This document shows, piece by piece, positions 45,567-58,548 of a DNA stretch of 64,000 nucleotides (positions are counted from its first letter, which is position 1; each line of letters starts with the position of its first letter). The stretch lies in assembly GCA_951406725.2 (NCBI GenBank), contig OX597816.1, forward strand, positions 97,650,001 to 97,714,000, given 5' to 3'. Origin of the DNA: Octopus vulgaris (taxonomy: Eukaryota). The position numbers and the translations under genes are program-made. The notes beneath the pieces are model-generated. The model had not been told where the DNA came from, ran no database searches, and worked only from the letters and a program-made list of their open reading frames with translations.

Positions 45567-47012
45567 CTATGCCCGGAGATAAATCTGTCAACAAAAAATA
45601 CAGACGAATGCAGATCTGTTAGCATTAAGAAGTCACGTTACGAGCAATGTTTTCATCCGGAGAACTCAGAGGCGGTGTTGTGTCAAAAAATTGACCCAAA
45701 ACAGACAATTCCGCCCCCTAATGATAACGTCCAAGCTCGTCATGCCTCAGTGATAACAAAGGAAAGTACAAACCATATTGGCGGTCACCCGGAACACCAA
45801 GGAACACATACTCGAATGATGAACCAGAATCGGTACGGAAAATCAACTACTGGTTCAAATCTTCCCGAAACACAGGTGCTGGACGTACCCTACAACCGGA
45901 ATATTCAAACAGATGGATATCCAAGCTCGTCATCAAATAACCAATAAAAAAAAAGAGACTAAAAACTGGTCTAGGGAGGATAATAAAGAAGTTCTTAAGG
46001 CTGTCTATCATGCCATACATTTCCCCACAAATAAATCTAATACTGTCGAAACATACTTAAATTGGAGCAGAAACATATTGAAGAAGGACACTAAGTAGAA
46101 AGTAACAAACGTGCCAGCATCAGAAGAAACACTATGAAAAAGACATTATTAACTTTATTAGAAATTGATCAAATTAAACAATCAGTGAGGGATAAAAGAA
46201 CGACGTTGCAGTTAAAGAATATACTACGGAGGAAATAATTATAGACGGACCCACGTCTGGTGAAACTGCAATAATCATTGAAGGAGTTAATATAACTGAT
46301 AAGAAAAGTGAACTCTCTGAATCAACCATAAACACTAAGGTAGAGGAAAATCAAATAGATGAAGAAAGTCACACAGAACTGAACTAGATAACTTAAAAAT
46401 TCAAATCATGATACTGAATGGCTGAAAATGAAAGAAACCAGTACGAAAGAACTCGACACTCTCCCAAAAATTCGCAATTCTTATCAAAACTGATATATGA
46501 CAAGAAAAACCTCTCAATGGCAAATACCCAAGGAGAGCTAATAGTGCAGATGTTGACAAAGCCCTTACCCATCAATGGTTAGAGTCTTCTGGCTTAAATT
46601 CAGAAACAGAAGGGTTTATCATAGCAGCCCAAACCAATGCCTACCGACAAGGAACTACCACACCAACATATTAAAGAACGGTAGTAGCCCAACATGTCGT
46701 GTATGTCAACAACAAAATGAAACCATTGATTATGTTGCTTCCATGTATAGTTTTCTTGCGCTTACAAGTATCTCAACAGGCATGATAGAGCAGCACGATA
46801 TATTCACTGGCTAATTTGCAAAAACCTGAACCGGCCCCACGCTAAAAAATGGTGGGAACACAAACCACCTCCAGTACTTGTGAAGGATCACATCTCACTC
46901 CTCTGGAACTTCCCCATTCAAACTGACAGAAAGATCGATGCAAATAGGCCAGATATTACATTGAAAGACCTCAGACACAAATCACGCCTCTTCATTCATA
47001 TGACTGTCCCAA
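45564..47012 (+). mobile_element. R4/Dong-like LINE derivative: N-terminal region joined to CCHC-RLE region, RT absent
   Basis: Starts ATG CCC GGA right after (AAT)n. KNWSREDNKEVLKAVYHA N-terminal motif. From about 46490: QEKPLNGKYP, QWLESSGLNSETEGFIIAA, CRVCQQQNETID, LLWNFPIQTDRKIDANRPDI. Confidence 0.78.
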
Positions 47013-48504: not shown

Positions 48505-50520
48505 TTATTATTATTATTCTATGTTTGAGTTTTGCTTTATATTTGTACAAGTTGGCTCCAAGTCTCACTCAGAGACCTCAAGAGACAACAGGTTGGAAGT
48601 TCATGTTGTTGTTATGCCTAGTGTGCCATATATTTGGGGTGGGGGGAGTTTTTGGTGTTGTACTAATGAATGTCTAAAAAAAAAACGAAAATTATGTTTG
48701 TTTTAAATCTTGAGATTACATAGAAAGTATTTTGCGTAGGATATGAGCAGTTCCCATGAGCACTATCTTTTGAATTTCTGCCATTTTGGGGTTTCCTGGT
48801 ATCTGAATTAGGTAGCTATCAGCCCTTTTGCTATCATTCCCAGGGCACCTATGACAACAGATATTGTTTTAGTCTTCAGGTTCCACATTTTGCTGATTTC
48901 TATTTCAAGATATTTATATTTGCTCAGTTTTTGGTAGGTCTTGACAGATACGTTTATATCGATTGGGACAGTCATATCAATGAGGAGGCATGTTCTTTGT
49001 TTGAAGTCTTTCAATATGTCTGGCCTATTTGCATCTATCTTTCTGTCAGTTTGAATGGTGAAGTTCCAGAGGAGTGAGATGTGGTCATTTTCAAGCACGG
49101 GGGGTGGTTTGTGTTCCCACCAGTTTTTTTCATGGGGCAAATCCAGGTTTTTGCAGATTACCCAGTGAATATATTGTGCAGCTCTATCGTGTCTGTTGAG
49201 ATACTCTGTAGGCGCTAGAAGACTGCACTTGGAGACCACATGGTCAATGGTTTCATTTTGTTGCTGGCATACACGACACGTTGGACTACTTCTGATCTTT
49301 TGTATGTTGGCCTGGTAGTTTCTTGTTGGTGGGCATTGATCTTGAGCTGCTATGATAAACCCCTCTGTTTCAGATGATAAGCCAGAGGCCATTAGCCATT
49401 GATGGGTCAGGGCTTTGTCAACATCTGCATTATTTGCTCTATTTGGGTATTTGTCATAGAGAGGTTTTTCTTGCCATTTATCATTCAGAATATCTAAGGC
49501 CGCAGATTTAGCACGGGTTTTCATGCGCTTAGCTTTTTCTATGCCTGTTTCTTGTATGTCTATCTCTAATTCCGAAATTTGTTGTATTCGGAATTCACTT
49601 AGATATTCCTTTGCCTGTTTTGTTACTGACTATGATGCTTTCTTGTTTTCATGTTTTGAGACAAGTTTTAACATCCAGTCCTCAGAGTTTTTCAGTAGGT
49701 GTCTAGGCCAATTGTAGCAATCTTCATTGTTATTGCCAGTTGTAAAAGTCCACGGCCTCCCTCTTTTCTTGGCAGATAAAGTCGTTCTGTATCTGCCTTA
49801 GGGTGGTGCATTCTATGCATTGTCAACAGTTTTCGAATTTTTCTGTCAAGATTACATATTTCAGTAATTGACCAGTTAACGATATTGAAACTGTAAGTCA
49901 CAACTGGTATGGCTAATGCATTGATCGCTTCGATCCTGTTTCTCGCATTCAGCTCTGTCTTGAGTATTGCTCTTACTCTGCGATAACATTCTCTCCTGAT
50001 CCTTTCCTTCATCTCTGAATGCCTTATTCCCTCTCCTTCAATTACCCCTAGATACTTGTAGTTCTCTGCTGGGTCTAATTCTTTTATGACATTCTGCTGG
50101 TCAAGGTTAACGTTAGATGTTTCTGTCATTTTTCCTTTGATAAAGGTAGCTTTTGAACACTTATCGAGGCCAAATTGCATTCTGATGTCATCACTGAATT
50201 GTTTGACAATCGCTAGTAAGCCCTTGAGTTGTTGGTCATTTTTTGCAAAGAACTTTAAATCATCCATGTAAATGAGATGATTTATATTTTTATCAAACAT
50301 TTTATACCCGTACTACGCGTCATTGAGCAGTTTTGAGAGAGGTATTAAGGCTAAACAGAAGAGGAGTGGTGATAGTGAGTCACCCTGGAAAATGCCACAT
50401 GAAATTTTTACATCACCAGCATTTAGAGATTCGTTGTCACTGTTCAAAGTTAGTGTGGTTCTCCATGATCTCATACTTACAGACAAAAAGTCTCGCAGAG
50501 CAGGTGCTATCTTATACATT
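48505..50520 (-). mobile_element. R4/Dong-like LINE (family A), 5'-truncated, best-preserved RT/RLE copy
   Basis: GIFQGDSLSPLLFCLAL, HLIYMDDLK, FGLDKC, CRVC..ETIDHVVSKC (CCHC), RHD, RPDI...LIDMTVP...KY..LEIEI (RLE). 3' tail into (TAA)n at 48505-48516; 5' end at the 50.5-kb (ATT)n tract. Confidence 0.95.
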
Positions 50521-50735: not shown

Positions 50736-53700
50736 TGCCATTTCACAGCTTCTAACGCTGGAGATCTATTACAGTGTCAGCTTTTCACTACTATTGAACT
50801 AAAGTAACACCTCTTATTTTACGATCACCGTCCGGAGTATTCGAGTGGTTCCAAGCAGTGCTGTTTTCTGGAAGTGCTCCACCCTTATTACAGACCCTAT
50901 TTGTTCCACGTACGTCTCGAGATTTTTGCTTACTGTTCCCAGGCTCCGATATTTATTGGTACTACTGCTACCTTTTTCATCGACCATAACTGCTTAACCT
51001 CTCAAGCTAACCTGTCATATCTCTAGATTTTTCTTTCTTCGTTATCGCATACCTTGTTGTCAGCTGGGCATGCTATGTGTATGATCCAGCATAGTTTGCT
51101 TTCTTTCTCAATTAAGACTATGGCTGGCTTCCTATTCTATATCTCATGGTCGCACTGAATCATAAAATCCCATAGGATCTTTGCATTTCTATCTTCGAAT
51201 TTGCCTTCAGGTTTGCGGTCATCCTTTTTTTTTCCTCTGTCAACTCTATACTTAGTGCAAAGCGTCTAATGGACAAGCCTGGGTATATTGTCGTGGCATC
51301 TCTTGTATTGTATCTGGGCTAGTAGCGTGCATTGGCTAGTATTATGCCATACGGTTTCACCGTTTTGTCCACAGATTCTGCACTAGTGCTTGCTCTTGGG
51401 CAGAACATATTAGAGCCTCCGTTTTGAATCACTTTTAGTCATCCACTGCCATCTTTTTTCTCTGTCTGTCTTTTCTTTAACATCCCTATGAAATTGACCA
51501 TACATTCTTTTCTGTATCCACCTATTTTCAGTTTCATTCGTTTTCGATTTCTTGTATAGTGCTTTATCTTTGCGGTCTTTCATCCTACAAAAGACTGACC
51601 TTCTTCCTTCTAATAATACCGGTTCTGTGACAGTTTTTATACCATGTTATGTTGTTTTCTTCTGCTCTAATGCTGTGTTCGCATCCAATTAGTCACCTTT
51701 CCTTTTTTTTCTTGGTACATACAGTCTGTCTGTGTCACTTTTTGGGTGGAGTGACCCATATCTAGTTAGCAACTTTCTGTCTAAGCTGCTTAGTTCGTTT
51801 ACTGTCCATGCGAGTACCCCTGCTCCATATCTAAAGAGTGAAACCGCCCAGATGTTGATAGCTTCGATCCTATTCCGTCCATTTAATTTCGACTTTAGGA
51901 TCAGTCTCAGTCTGCGCAAGTACTCCACCTTAAACTTTTCTGTAATTTCTTTCTCCATAAATGTATCCATTTCCAAAATCCCCGAGTAATTATAGCCCGT
52001 CTCTTCTATCTACTTCATAACCTCCCCCGACAGTATCGTTAGCCCGTCTATACATTTGATTTTGCCTCTCTTCAAGACAACACTTTCTTAGTCCGAATTC
52101 CATTCCATTATCAACACTGAAGGTATACAGCGTATCGACGAGGGAACTGACTTGGGCTCCATCTTTACGATAAAGTTTGAAGTCAACCATGAATAACAAA
52201 TAGTTGACTTTTTGTTGGCGGCTTTTGAATACACCCCCAGCTTTTGCTTTCCTCAGAATCAGTGTTAGTGTTATCAAGCACAGTACAAAGATCAGTGGGG
52301 ACAGGCAGTCCCCTTGGAAGTTGCCTCTCCTAATTTCTATTGTCCTTAAGCTTCTTCCGTATGCTATCAGGTCCGTCCTCCAGTTCACCATAATTTTTCC
52401 AAGCAATCGCTCAACATTCGATGCAATACCAAATAGGTTCATACACTGTATAATCCAAGAATGTGGGATCATATTGCACGCCTTAGGATAGTCGATCCAT
52501 GACATAGCTAAGTTACTTTTCCTCCTCTTGCATTCTCTAAGTACATTTTTGTCCATCAGGAGTTGATCCTTGGCACCTATGCACTTACGCTTGCAACCCT
52601 TCTGCGCATATGGCAGGACTCCATTTTTTTTCTAGATGATCGTACATGACTCTGCGAGTATTCCAGTCAATAATTTCCATAGAAGTGGCAAGCAAGATAT
52701 CGCCCTGTAATTGTCTACCGTGTTGTCTTTTTTGATGTTTTTCAGGCACATCACTGTCTTACCCAATGTCAACCACTCTGGTATTACTTGGTCAGCATTT
52801 AACAAGATTTTGAGTTGCAAAGCCATTCGTGCATGACATTCCCCAAAAGTCTTGATATAGTAGCCTTGAACTCCATCTAGTCCGGGGGCCTTCCAGTCGC
52901 TCATTTTTTTTGTGGATTTCCTTCACTTCCCCAGCTAAAATGACAAGTTCTGCCTGTTTTGGACAGATAAGTCTTCGTTTCACTTCTTGCAACCATTCAG
53001 CATCCTTCTTGTGCTCTTTCTCTTTGCTCCAGATGTCACTCCAAAACATTTGACTTTCGATGTTACGTGGTATAAAAGTTTCATCTGTACGTTCTCCATT
53101 TATTTATTTATAGAATCTCTTCTAATCTACTCTGAATAACCGATTCTGTTGATAACCTTTCATTCTTTGGTGTGTATCGTATCCTCTTTGCTTTATTTGC
53201 AACTAGGTACTGTTTCGGTCCCTCCACTACTACTTTCAGGCCCTTACTTTCAATATTACAATTCCTTTTCTGGGCCCTGTATTTTTGTTTGCTTTTAAGC
53301 TCCACTTTCTCTTTTCAGTCTAACACAGAGATTTTCTTCGAGAGCATGTCTAACCCTGCCTGGATTCTTCTTTTCTACCTTGGATCGTTTCTTTTGCTAC
53401 TCCCATTATGTTTCTTTTTCTTGACATCAACACCTACGTTTTCTGCTACAACAATACTTGCTGCCTTGATCAAATTATTTGTTTCTGTGATGTTTGTTCT
53501 TATGTATTTCAGAATTTCATTCACATTTTTTTGTTTCTTGGTTCAATTTCTATCGATCAACCTTTTTAAAGTTTTTCTTTCATCTTTCATGTCGCCATTA
53601 GTTTTATTGTCTTCTTTTAGATCATTTATTTGTCTCTCATCAAGTAAACTACCATTACTCCTTTCCAGTGCTATAGGATTACACTTATTAGTAAGAACTA

Positions 53701-54209: not shown

Positions 54210-54734
54210 ATCTGTTTGTGGAACTAGTTGGGGTAGCAGCTTGGTAAATAGATCGTGTTATAGAGGTCTATAAATAGATTCGGCAGATGGTGGGGAGGTC
54301 AGCCATAGAAACAAAGGAATTTTCGAACCATTTGAGTTCCTAACTTATTTTATTTTGAGGAAGATTTAAAATATTCACAAGAAATTGTAGATATTACAGT
54401 CTTTGGAAATAGTAGGAGGAAGAGATATTCACCTCGTTGGATTTTTGAATTTCTGAATTTCTAATTCTTTTGGAAATATTGAATTTCTAAATGTCTCAGA
54501 GAGACATGAGCGGTGGTGGGGCGATAGAGTGGTTGTATACTCTCAACATAACGTAACAGTCCCGTAAATGGAATTACACCACCGCTATTTAGCCCTAGGA
54601 AGCATCGACGCTTCCTGTCGGCCTTGACACATTTCCTGTGTCCTCATATTTGCGAAGGAGATTAGGCACCCCCACCAGCTAGGGCTAGCACCTAGAGACA
54701 TGCATGTTTCTGCATCTTTGCTCGTCATCAGTCT
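54210..54734 (-). mobile_element. Penelope-like 5' region: hammerhead, structured leader and decayed ORF start
   Basis: Hammerhead at the 5' end, a series of hairpins, ATG at 54507, then broken frames FLLL/KDCNIYNFL..F.LP resembling the PLE N-terminal FLxxCxxxNxxPxF motif. Leader homologous to 58375-58548. Confidence 0.55.
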
Positions 54735-54739
54735 GTAGG
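54691..54739 (-). ncRNA. Type I hammerhead ribozyme motif with GUC cleavage triplet
   Basis: Minus strand AGA-CTGATGA-CGAGCAAAGATGCA-GAAA-CATGCATG-TC-TCT. Exact core, palindromic stem III ACATGCATGT, stem I AGA/TCT, weak stem II GCA/TGC. Confidence 0.75.
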
Positions 54740-55150
54740 TGCAAGAAGACTGCACATGGAGACAACAAAATCAATGGTTTCATTTTGTTGTTGACGTACA
54801 TGACATGTTGGGCTACTACCGTTCTTTAATATGTTGGCCTGGTAGTTTCTTGTAGGCAGGCATTGATCTTGGGCTGCTATAATAAACATTTCTGTTTCTG
54901 AATTTAAGCCAGAAGACTCTAACCATTGATGGACACGGGCTTTGTCAACATCTCTTTGGGTATCTGCAATCGAGAGGTTTTTCTTGCCATTTTATTAGTA
55001 AGAATATCTAAGGCAGCAGTTTTAGCATGGGTTTTCATACGCTTAGCATTTTCTGTGCTTGTTTCTAAAACGTCTAATTCTGGAATTTGTTGTTTTAGGA
55101 ATTTATTTAGATATTCCATTGCCTGTTTTGTTTCTGAGTATGATGCGTTC
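54735..55150 (-). mobile_element. R4/Dong-like LINE (family A) fragment
   Basis: ASYSETKQAMEYLNKF...MKTHAKTAALDIL, then SSGLNSETE.FIIAAQDQCLPTRNYQ, CHVRQQNETID. Homologous to 49200-49640. Confidence 0.9.
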
Positions 55151-58321: not shown

Positions 58322-58374
<53 letters not shown>

Positions 58375-58377
<3 letters not shown>

Positions 58378-58548
58378 ACACAGGAAATGTGGCGAAGCCG
58401 ACAGGAAGCGTAGATGCTTCCTGGGGCTAAACAGCGGTGAGGTAATCCCCTACTGTCACGTTAAGTTGACAGTATACAACCACCCTATCGCCCCACCACC
58501 GTACATATCTCTATCTCTATGAGATATTTAGAAATTTAATATTTCTGA
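58375..58548 (+). repeat. Second copy of the structured leader seen at 54470-54645
   Basis: aggacacaggaaatgtg...gccgacaggaagcgt.gatgcttcct.gggctaaa.agcggtg...gtatacaaccac.ctatcgccccaccaccg...tttagaaatt.aatatttc. Confidence 0.9.

Follow-up and report, generated by a model that had tools for sequence, protein, structure and literature searches.

A probable truncated retrozyme copy in Octopus vulgaris: conserved fold, insertion footprint and putative promoter of its family

Non-LTR retrozymes of metazoans are short repeats, 150–400 bp across the class, that carry one hammerhead per unit, occur in tandem and lack coding capacity (Cervera & de la Pena 2020, PMC7229834; Li, Clavereau & Pollet, bioRxiv 10.64898/2026.07.22.740005). 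How animal retrozymes are transcribed and how a reverse transcriptase (RT) recognizes them are described as open questions (bioRxiv 10.64898/2026.07.22.740005). Penelope-like elements (PLEs) are recognisable by insertions that are truncated, partly tandem, inverted and tailed (PMC8557442), and the RT of the PLE PAc has two internal start sites in an AC-rich stem-loop (PMC11167929).

We analysed a window of 64,000 nt of the Octopus vulgaris genome (contig OX597816.1, positions 97,650,001 to 97,714,000), on the minus strand of which an initial annotation had placed a hammerhead ribozyme directly upstream of a repeated multi-hairpin RNA, and had proposed a self-cleaving, cap-independent leader. 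We are confident, short of certainty, that this stretch is a 5'-truncated, likely inactive copy of a non-coding retrozyme of ~352 nt, likely copied by the RT of a PLE. What had been observed is mostly right; the interpretation as a leader is unsupported, and the fallback that had been offered, an RT-recognition element, is likely the best reading of the hairpin domain. As a repeat copy that is likely dead, the locus is of less importance than its family: with helix order kept through six divergent families, both 3' ends mapped and a promoter motif at hand, transcription and RT recognition can be tested directly. The features of the locus, in window coordinates, are as follows.

54734..55150, minus strand: flank on the upstream side, a fragment from the zinc-knuckle region of an unrelated LINE that encodes an RT, 80–85% identical to 49205-49642 and 46497-46766.
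54470..54733, minus strand: 5'-truncated retrozyme copy of subfamily A, corresponding to nt 90-352 of the ~352-bp unit.
54694..54734, minus strand: type I hammerhead, with core CTGATGA at 54731-54725, mismatched stem II, GAAA and palindromic stem III.
54679..54687, minus strand: orphaned 3' arm of an extended stem I (one arm of the first annotated helix), which finds its partner upstream when full units are folded as circles.
54626..54642, minus strand: hairpin GACACA/TGTGTC (hairpin 2), with double changes in 3/6 pairs (a low estimate, see below) and 93.6% of cells paired.
54591..54623, minus strand: GGCC/GGCT clamp around hairpin AGGAAGC/GCTTCCT, with double changes in 2/4 pairs of the clamp and 5/7 of the hairpin.
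54509..54586, minus strand: 10-bp helix closing an inner hairpin and an AC-rich stretch (54536-54521), with double changes in 6/10 pairs.
54470..54507, minus strand: two terminal hairpins, ATGTCTC/GAGACAT and then TTAGAAAT/ATTTC[C]AA; site of the second group of family 3' ends (nt 351-355).
54337..54475, minus strand: flank on the downstream side, an interior segment of another repeat family, for which there are 626 first-look candidates.
58370..58548, plus strand: second, shorter copy, of subfamily B, comprising the 3' half only, without hammerhead, behind a (TA)n run.

All 11 motif coordinates annotated on the minus strand (CTGATGA at 54731-54725, GAAA, the palindrome ACATGCATGT, GTC and five helices) proved exact on re-checking, and 54470-54760 folds better than chance (z -2.5; 1/200 shuffles as good). 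The copy is 89.8% identical over 265 nt to a natural monomer (L003:1149-1500) and has its 3' end in common with the best genome matches (40 of 2847 first-look candidates scored). The hammerhead core CUGAnGA...GAAA...NUH is present both here and across the family, and the unit's type I hammerhead is predicted to be self-cleaving, with the cut in the window copy expected between 54697 and 54696. However, the core that had been called exact is so in sequence only, stems I and II being broken. Stem I is down to 3 contiguous bp, stem II has a central mismatch, and the first 89 nt of the unit, including the promoter part, are absent; for these reasons the copy is likely dead.

On its upstream side the copy joins the LINE fragment through AGA/GA microhomology. 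That LINE, by its motifs presumably of R4/Dong type, has an ORF at 48808-49629 of the window, and homologues of it carry an RT. Decayed RT-encoding LINE sequences cluster near (TAA)n runs in the window (46497-47000, 48760-50312, 51689-53103 and 54734-55150). The downstream repeat (54475-54337 here; further copies at L032-L040) belongs to an unclassified family of ~1.5–2 kb with internal repeats, near the 5' end of which lies a CTGAAGA..GAAA string with no evident stems; none of nine other fetched copies of it carries the unit. The junctions of the window copy are bridged by none of the listed sequencing-run contigs, a result to which we attach no weight.

Genome-wide, the natural monomer measures 352 bp, and units of 352–358 bp each contain one type I hammerhead and no ORF. 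The hammerhead core pattern has 614 matches (a few counted twice) and the terminal motif pattern 1179, with 0 matches to either reversed control; together with the second partial copy in the window, these counts confirm that the RNA is repeated. The best copies end at a common 3' position and differ at their 5' ends, frequently standing head-to-tail or beside an inverted partner, and both dimers and longer tandems are present. A short repeat with one hammerhead per unit, in tandem and without coding capacity, has the features of the non-LTR retrozyme class (PMC7229834), into which the window stretch fits; the RNA, in which the initial annotation had recognised no described family, is thus of a known kind, although Rfam gives no match.

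Beyond subfamilies A and B, the related families C, D, E and F have different sequences and the same helix order. Subfamily B has ATA in place of ATG in the last named hairpin, where a G-C to A-T change compensates the pairing. Altered cores occur in several families (CCGATGA, TTGATAA), which counts against our reading of the unit; subfamilies that combine a CCGATGA or CCGACGA core with a U-U pair at the foot of stem II occur in abundance (L097-L125, L242, L252, L256). One array of family D (L377, G000:C4:13620759-13624380) comprises 9 full units of 355 bp and 2 partial ones, with core TTGATAA or TTGACAA. Contigs from runs that we guess to be RNA cover the unit unevenly, and least over the hammerhead, which speaks neither for nor against expression. 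The retrozyme family is probably common to related species, because contigs at least 92% like the unit are found in three runs (X18, X19, X20) under three different organism codes.

Rfam returns no match in the window at the gathering threshold, and in six related loci its hammerhead models give none at E<=1, the only matches being microsatellite-driven miRNA and snoRNA ones; hence the ribozyme call rests on core motif and covariation. Within the family hammerhead, double changes are found in 5/5 pairs of stem I, 3/3 of stem II and 1/3 of stem III. Across 24 rows from six families, double changes occur in 37/64 pairs against 23.4 when shuffled (0/500 shuffles reach the observed value), a test that is inflated by kinship among rows. 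The proposed structure pairs 85% of cells and slid controls 35–42%, the former fraction being inflated since the rows were hand-picked and the structure was drawn from these very sequences. Since the MAFFT alignment is wrong at hairpins 2 and 5 of families D–F, the double-change counts of these two hairpins are low estimates. Run unaided, RNAalifold finds stems I and II, hairpin 3 (AGGAAGC) and, in a slid register, helix 4, but misses hairpins 2 and 5. The annotation's first helix, TAGCCCTAG/CTAGGGCTA (54679-87 with 54590-98), has a double change in 1/9 pairs, and 104/500 shuffles reach its score. In full units its 54679-87 arm pairs upstream as extended stem I, and the annotated helix forms in the window copy because truncation took away the real partner. 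Four of the five helices that had been drawn hold across six families, two of them strongly, whereas the first is without covariation. The succession of a type I hammerhead and a conserved structured RNA, with covarying stems and one helix order through six families, is upheld; we regard this as support for a conserved fold, short of proof. When five natural monomers were folded as circles in silico, each scored better than all 60 of its shuffles (z -4.9 to -8.4), with 62–69% of nucleotides paired; the fold is a long rod, capped by the hammerhead, to which a branched domain is added.

A hammerhead, then dense structure with an ATG in a hairpin, had suggested a self-cleaving, cap-independent leader (pLTR or 5' UTR) of a PLE ORF. 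The idea has a real precedent in viral UTRs, and low cap-independent translation in reporters is possible from self-cleavage alone (PMC13725137); the PAc ORF begins at its hammerhead, and the RT starts ~115 nt into that ORF (PMC11167929); and retrozymes descend from pLTRs (bioRxiv 10.64898/2026.07.22.740005), so that the hairpin domain may derive from the beginning of an ORF. In the window copy, however, there is no ORF for a leader to act on. Its ATG reads M-S-L-stop, with TGA at codon 4, and the DNA behind it is the unrelated repeat described above, in which blastx against 10 PLE ORF pieces from the same genome found a single 19-aa match (E 0.09), which is not credible; the supposed decayed PLE-like N-terminus is not confirmed. 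Neither a conserved start codon nor a downstream ORF, as an IRES-like leader should have, was found in the family: among 111 hairpins counted (some loci overlap), 60 have ATA, 50 have ATG and a single one has ACA, with a stop within 6 codons in every case. Nor does anything coding follow at 28 loci picked by the terminal motif, where 9/28 run into the next unit and 19/28 into unrelated flank. The unit is also absent from the PLE loci examined, the top-scored part of 6136 candidates. This explanation is already largely refuted, and we find it barely credible.

The copies nevertheless point to PLEs through their insertion footprint. Of 29 loci chosen by the core pattern alone, 12 show a partner in inverted orientation and 9 a head-to-tail junction. 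Free 3' ends, 44 in number, fall mostly (35) into two narrow intervals, 19 of them at nt 289-302, which is the AC-rich stretch (54536-54521 in the window copy), and 16 at nt 351-355, giving two fixed ends ~55 nt apart. The next 12 nt after these ends are 83–88% AT against a background of 62%, and (TA)4 follows 14/35 of the clustered ends against a background of 4.9%. Truncated 5' ends, partial tandems, 5' inversions, an optional tail and AT-rich or (TA)n targets are thus all seen; the first four match the PLE signature (PMC8557442), and the two 3' ends parallel the two internal RT starts of PAc (PMC11167929). The link to PLEs that had been proposed is therefore retained in this altered form, a PLE partner being suggested by the footprints alone. 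By sequence, no link to a PLE RT-GIY-YIG ORF was found: among the top-scored of 6136 candidates, no GIY-YIG locus in sets of 30, 5, 20 and 30 (three overlap) shares sequence with the unit.

The genome does hold young PLEs with intact ORFs. Their GIY-YIG families (L071-L075; L142, L146), presumably Neptune-like and Nematis-like, have intact frames of 781 aa (plus an upstream ORF) and ~1090 aa; the core regex finds no convincing hammerhead in their tails, and their ends abut (TA)n. PLE-like ORF fragments within ~500 bp of a unit (L167/L204, L201, L294) were considered as possible partners and rejected, since distance and strand vary and 2/3 lie behind a microsatellite; we read them as neighbours with a common (TA)n preference.

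What these ends and helices suggest is that the hairpin domain is likely an RT docking and start module and not an IRES. The domain might instead be only a scaffold for stability or ligation, the 3' ends arising from RNA breakage or from microhomology with AT targets and not from RT starts. Retrozyme circles are generally highly self-paired (PMC7229834), and the last hairpins resemble the targets in being rich in AT, as a scaffold would allow; but helix order is kept across six families of different sequence, and both groups of 3' ends are narrow and common to subfamilies A and B. We consider a mere scaffold unlikely, while giving it appreciable weight, and prefer the docking and start module.

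A second conserved element lies upstream of the hammerhead. The motif ATCAGTG, common to the retrozyme families and noted before U1 genes were compared, is found at -57 to -59 in 12/12 U1 loci and, in a looser form, at -57 to -61 in 13/15 U2 loci. In nine retrozyme insertions it precedes the first TSD base by 56–59 nt, two 9-nt TSD matches (L163, L218) having been dropped as chance; the chance expectation is 0.25% per 4-nt interval. Thirteen fetched sites outside A/B, mostly short and truncated, were more mixed: 2 with clear TSDs lack the motif, 1 has it at -68, 1 (family D) has it at -58 by eye, and 9 are without TSD. At the family level, then, the unit has a proximal element at the offset of U1 and U2 genes, and this element is missing from the truncated window copy; its position, with the LINE junctions described below, suggests that the unit carries an internal snRNA-type Pol II promoter. 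A U6/TATA-type promoter was considered and set aside: a TATA-like run occupies -28 to -30, its place in U6 genes, but the same run forms the base of the RNA rod; since the offset of the proximal motif fits U1 and U2, the Pol II type is preferred. U6 genes of this genome have an octamer-like motif and a TATA at -30 (L339, L341, L346, L347; L348-L359), and GAGGCAA is common to U1 and one U6 type, in which it lies 4 nt further upstream.

At several loci the unit is split just upstream of the hammerhead by a LINE of 5.45 kb with an ORF1 bearing a CCHC knuckle, an APE endonuclease and an RT, which we take to be of L1/Tx1 type (Tx1 clade); ORF1-only relatives of 1.65 kb split units there too, and ATCAGTG is seen ~58 nt ahead of the insertion point, which is fixed. 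Two sets of 30 LINE 3' ends were compared, each with the locus used as query and a few loci that may be duplicates among them. In the ORF1-only set, 24 are followed directly by retrozyme, 2 by a retrozyme head and another LINE and 3 by other DNA, with 1 lacking an intact end; in the full-LINE set, 16 are followed by retrozyme (15 by BLAST, one family-D site) and 12 by other DNA, with 2 lacking an intact end. Strict targeting is rejected, as 12/30 full-LINE and 3/30 ORF1-only 3' ends lie elsewhere; the targeting is a preference, not a rule. The LINE's own TSDs are 9–17 nt. At the two U2 loci without the motif, a LINE of this family (88% identity) ends at +1. Some LINE copies have an extra 5' head whose beginning coincides exactly with the ATC of another host, which is what transcription from that point would be expected to produce.

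Several further LINE arrangements were recorded. A full-length LINE stands at +1 of a U2 snRNA gene with a 14-nt TSD of the U2 start (loci L376, G000:C3:20812000-20821900; L375/L372, L365, L374), and one copy among these has the first 17 nt of U1 as its 5' head. At least three LINE families (full, ORF1-only and a third) occupy the same base of families A–F (L216-L222, L228-L287, L290, L294-L297), at times stacked behind one another.

The frequency with which a retrozyme lies directly behind the LINE (24/30 ORF1-only and 16/30 full 3' ends) could mean that this L1/Tx1-type LINE, and not a PLE, mobilises the unit, by 3' transduction or in SINE-like fashion. Most unit copies, though, have no LINE next to them; the LINE makes TSDs of its own and occurs in U2 genes too; and the inversions, partial tandems and two internal 3' ends of unit copies are absent from LINE insertions. 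Mobilisation by the LINE is accordingly very improbable, and copying by a PLE RT remains our preferred reading.

Under that reading, the life cycle would begin with Pol II transcription from the unit's internal promoter of snRNA type, ~30 nt upstream of the hammerhead core. Transcripts of tandem copies would be cleaved by two hammerheads, and the monomer so released would fold as a rod with the multi-hairpin domain and could circularise. A PLE RT-endonuclease might then dock on the hairpin domain, nick a target of AT-rich or (TA)n DNA and begin to copy the RNA from an internal site, either the AC-rich stretch or the last hairpin; an RT running round a circle or along a multimer would yield partial tandems, and early RT stops would yield truncated copies such as that in the window, which is without the promoter part and most of stem I. 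Two published results weigh against the scheme: PAc insertion in vitro does not need the hammerhead (PMC11167929), and 1/9 Xenopus dimers cleaved (bioRxiv 10.64898/2026.07.22.740005).

More tentatively, and at somewhat less than even odds, we propose that docking by structure alone lets divergent circular RNAs borrow a sequence-unrelated Penelope RT, and that the snRNA-like start base has been captured by a LINE through its position, the LINE also being found at U2 +1. If true, this would be a three-tier parasite chain of PLE enzyme, retrozyme and LINE. The sole setting left for a leader is the unit-LINE tandem, in which an upstream hammerhead would put a structured RNA with a 5'-OH before the LINE ORF1; this we regard as improbable.

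The conserved fold and mapped ends of the retrozyme family represent a modest, testable novelty within a known class. Octopus retrozymes were not found in the literature searched, which covered few subscription journals and was without Repbase, and 'ribozyme' and 'retrozyme' have 0 matches in PMC13282606; 'octopus' and 'cephalopod' have 0 matches in the accessible part of PMC7229834, and the supplements of cited papers may list cephalopod retrozymes. A LINE inserting at +1 of snRNA-type promoters was likewise not found in that literature, again with few subscription journals and without Repbase.

The octopus unit resembles metazoan non-LTR retrozymes (PMC7229834; bioRxiv 10.64898/2026.07.22.740005) in its ORF-less length of ~350 nt (350–390 nt in mussel), in its type I hammerhead with a short palindromic helix III, and in its range from monomers to multimers, its self-paired circle (predicted in octopus) and the presence of PLEs in the genome. 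It differs in the helix order common to six families, the two mapped 3' ends and the snRNA-type motif, and no sister pLTR was found for it. With the PAc/Poseidon PLE (Frangieh et al. 2024, PMC11167929) it has in common an upstream hammerhead, two internal starts, an AC-rich stem-loop and AT-rich targets; but the RT-binding RNA of PAc is the first 172 nt of its ORF, whereas the putative counterpart in octopus is non-coding and lies ~170–225 nt behind the cut site, and the octopus tail of ~55 nt compares with 30–40 nt in print for PLE tails. Newt satellite 2 (PMC2220036, citing Coats 1994) is also a hammerhead repeat with an internal snRNA-type Pol II promoter, which there has been shown experimentally, while in octopus motif position and LINE junctions point to it. 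The inserted LINE resembles the target-specific Tx1-clade elements Tx1L, Tx1-Mar and Keno (PMC4494074, PMC4640811) in being of APE type and in its preference for a repeat or for U2 genes, and like some of them it has U1/U2 heads; Tx1 families that target other transposons are already known (PMC4494074). Keno and Utopia insert at U2 nt 38/39 (PMC4640811), whereas the octopus LINE inserts at U2 +1 and also at the equivalent base of several retrozyme families with little common target sequence.
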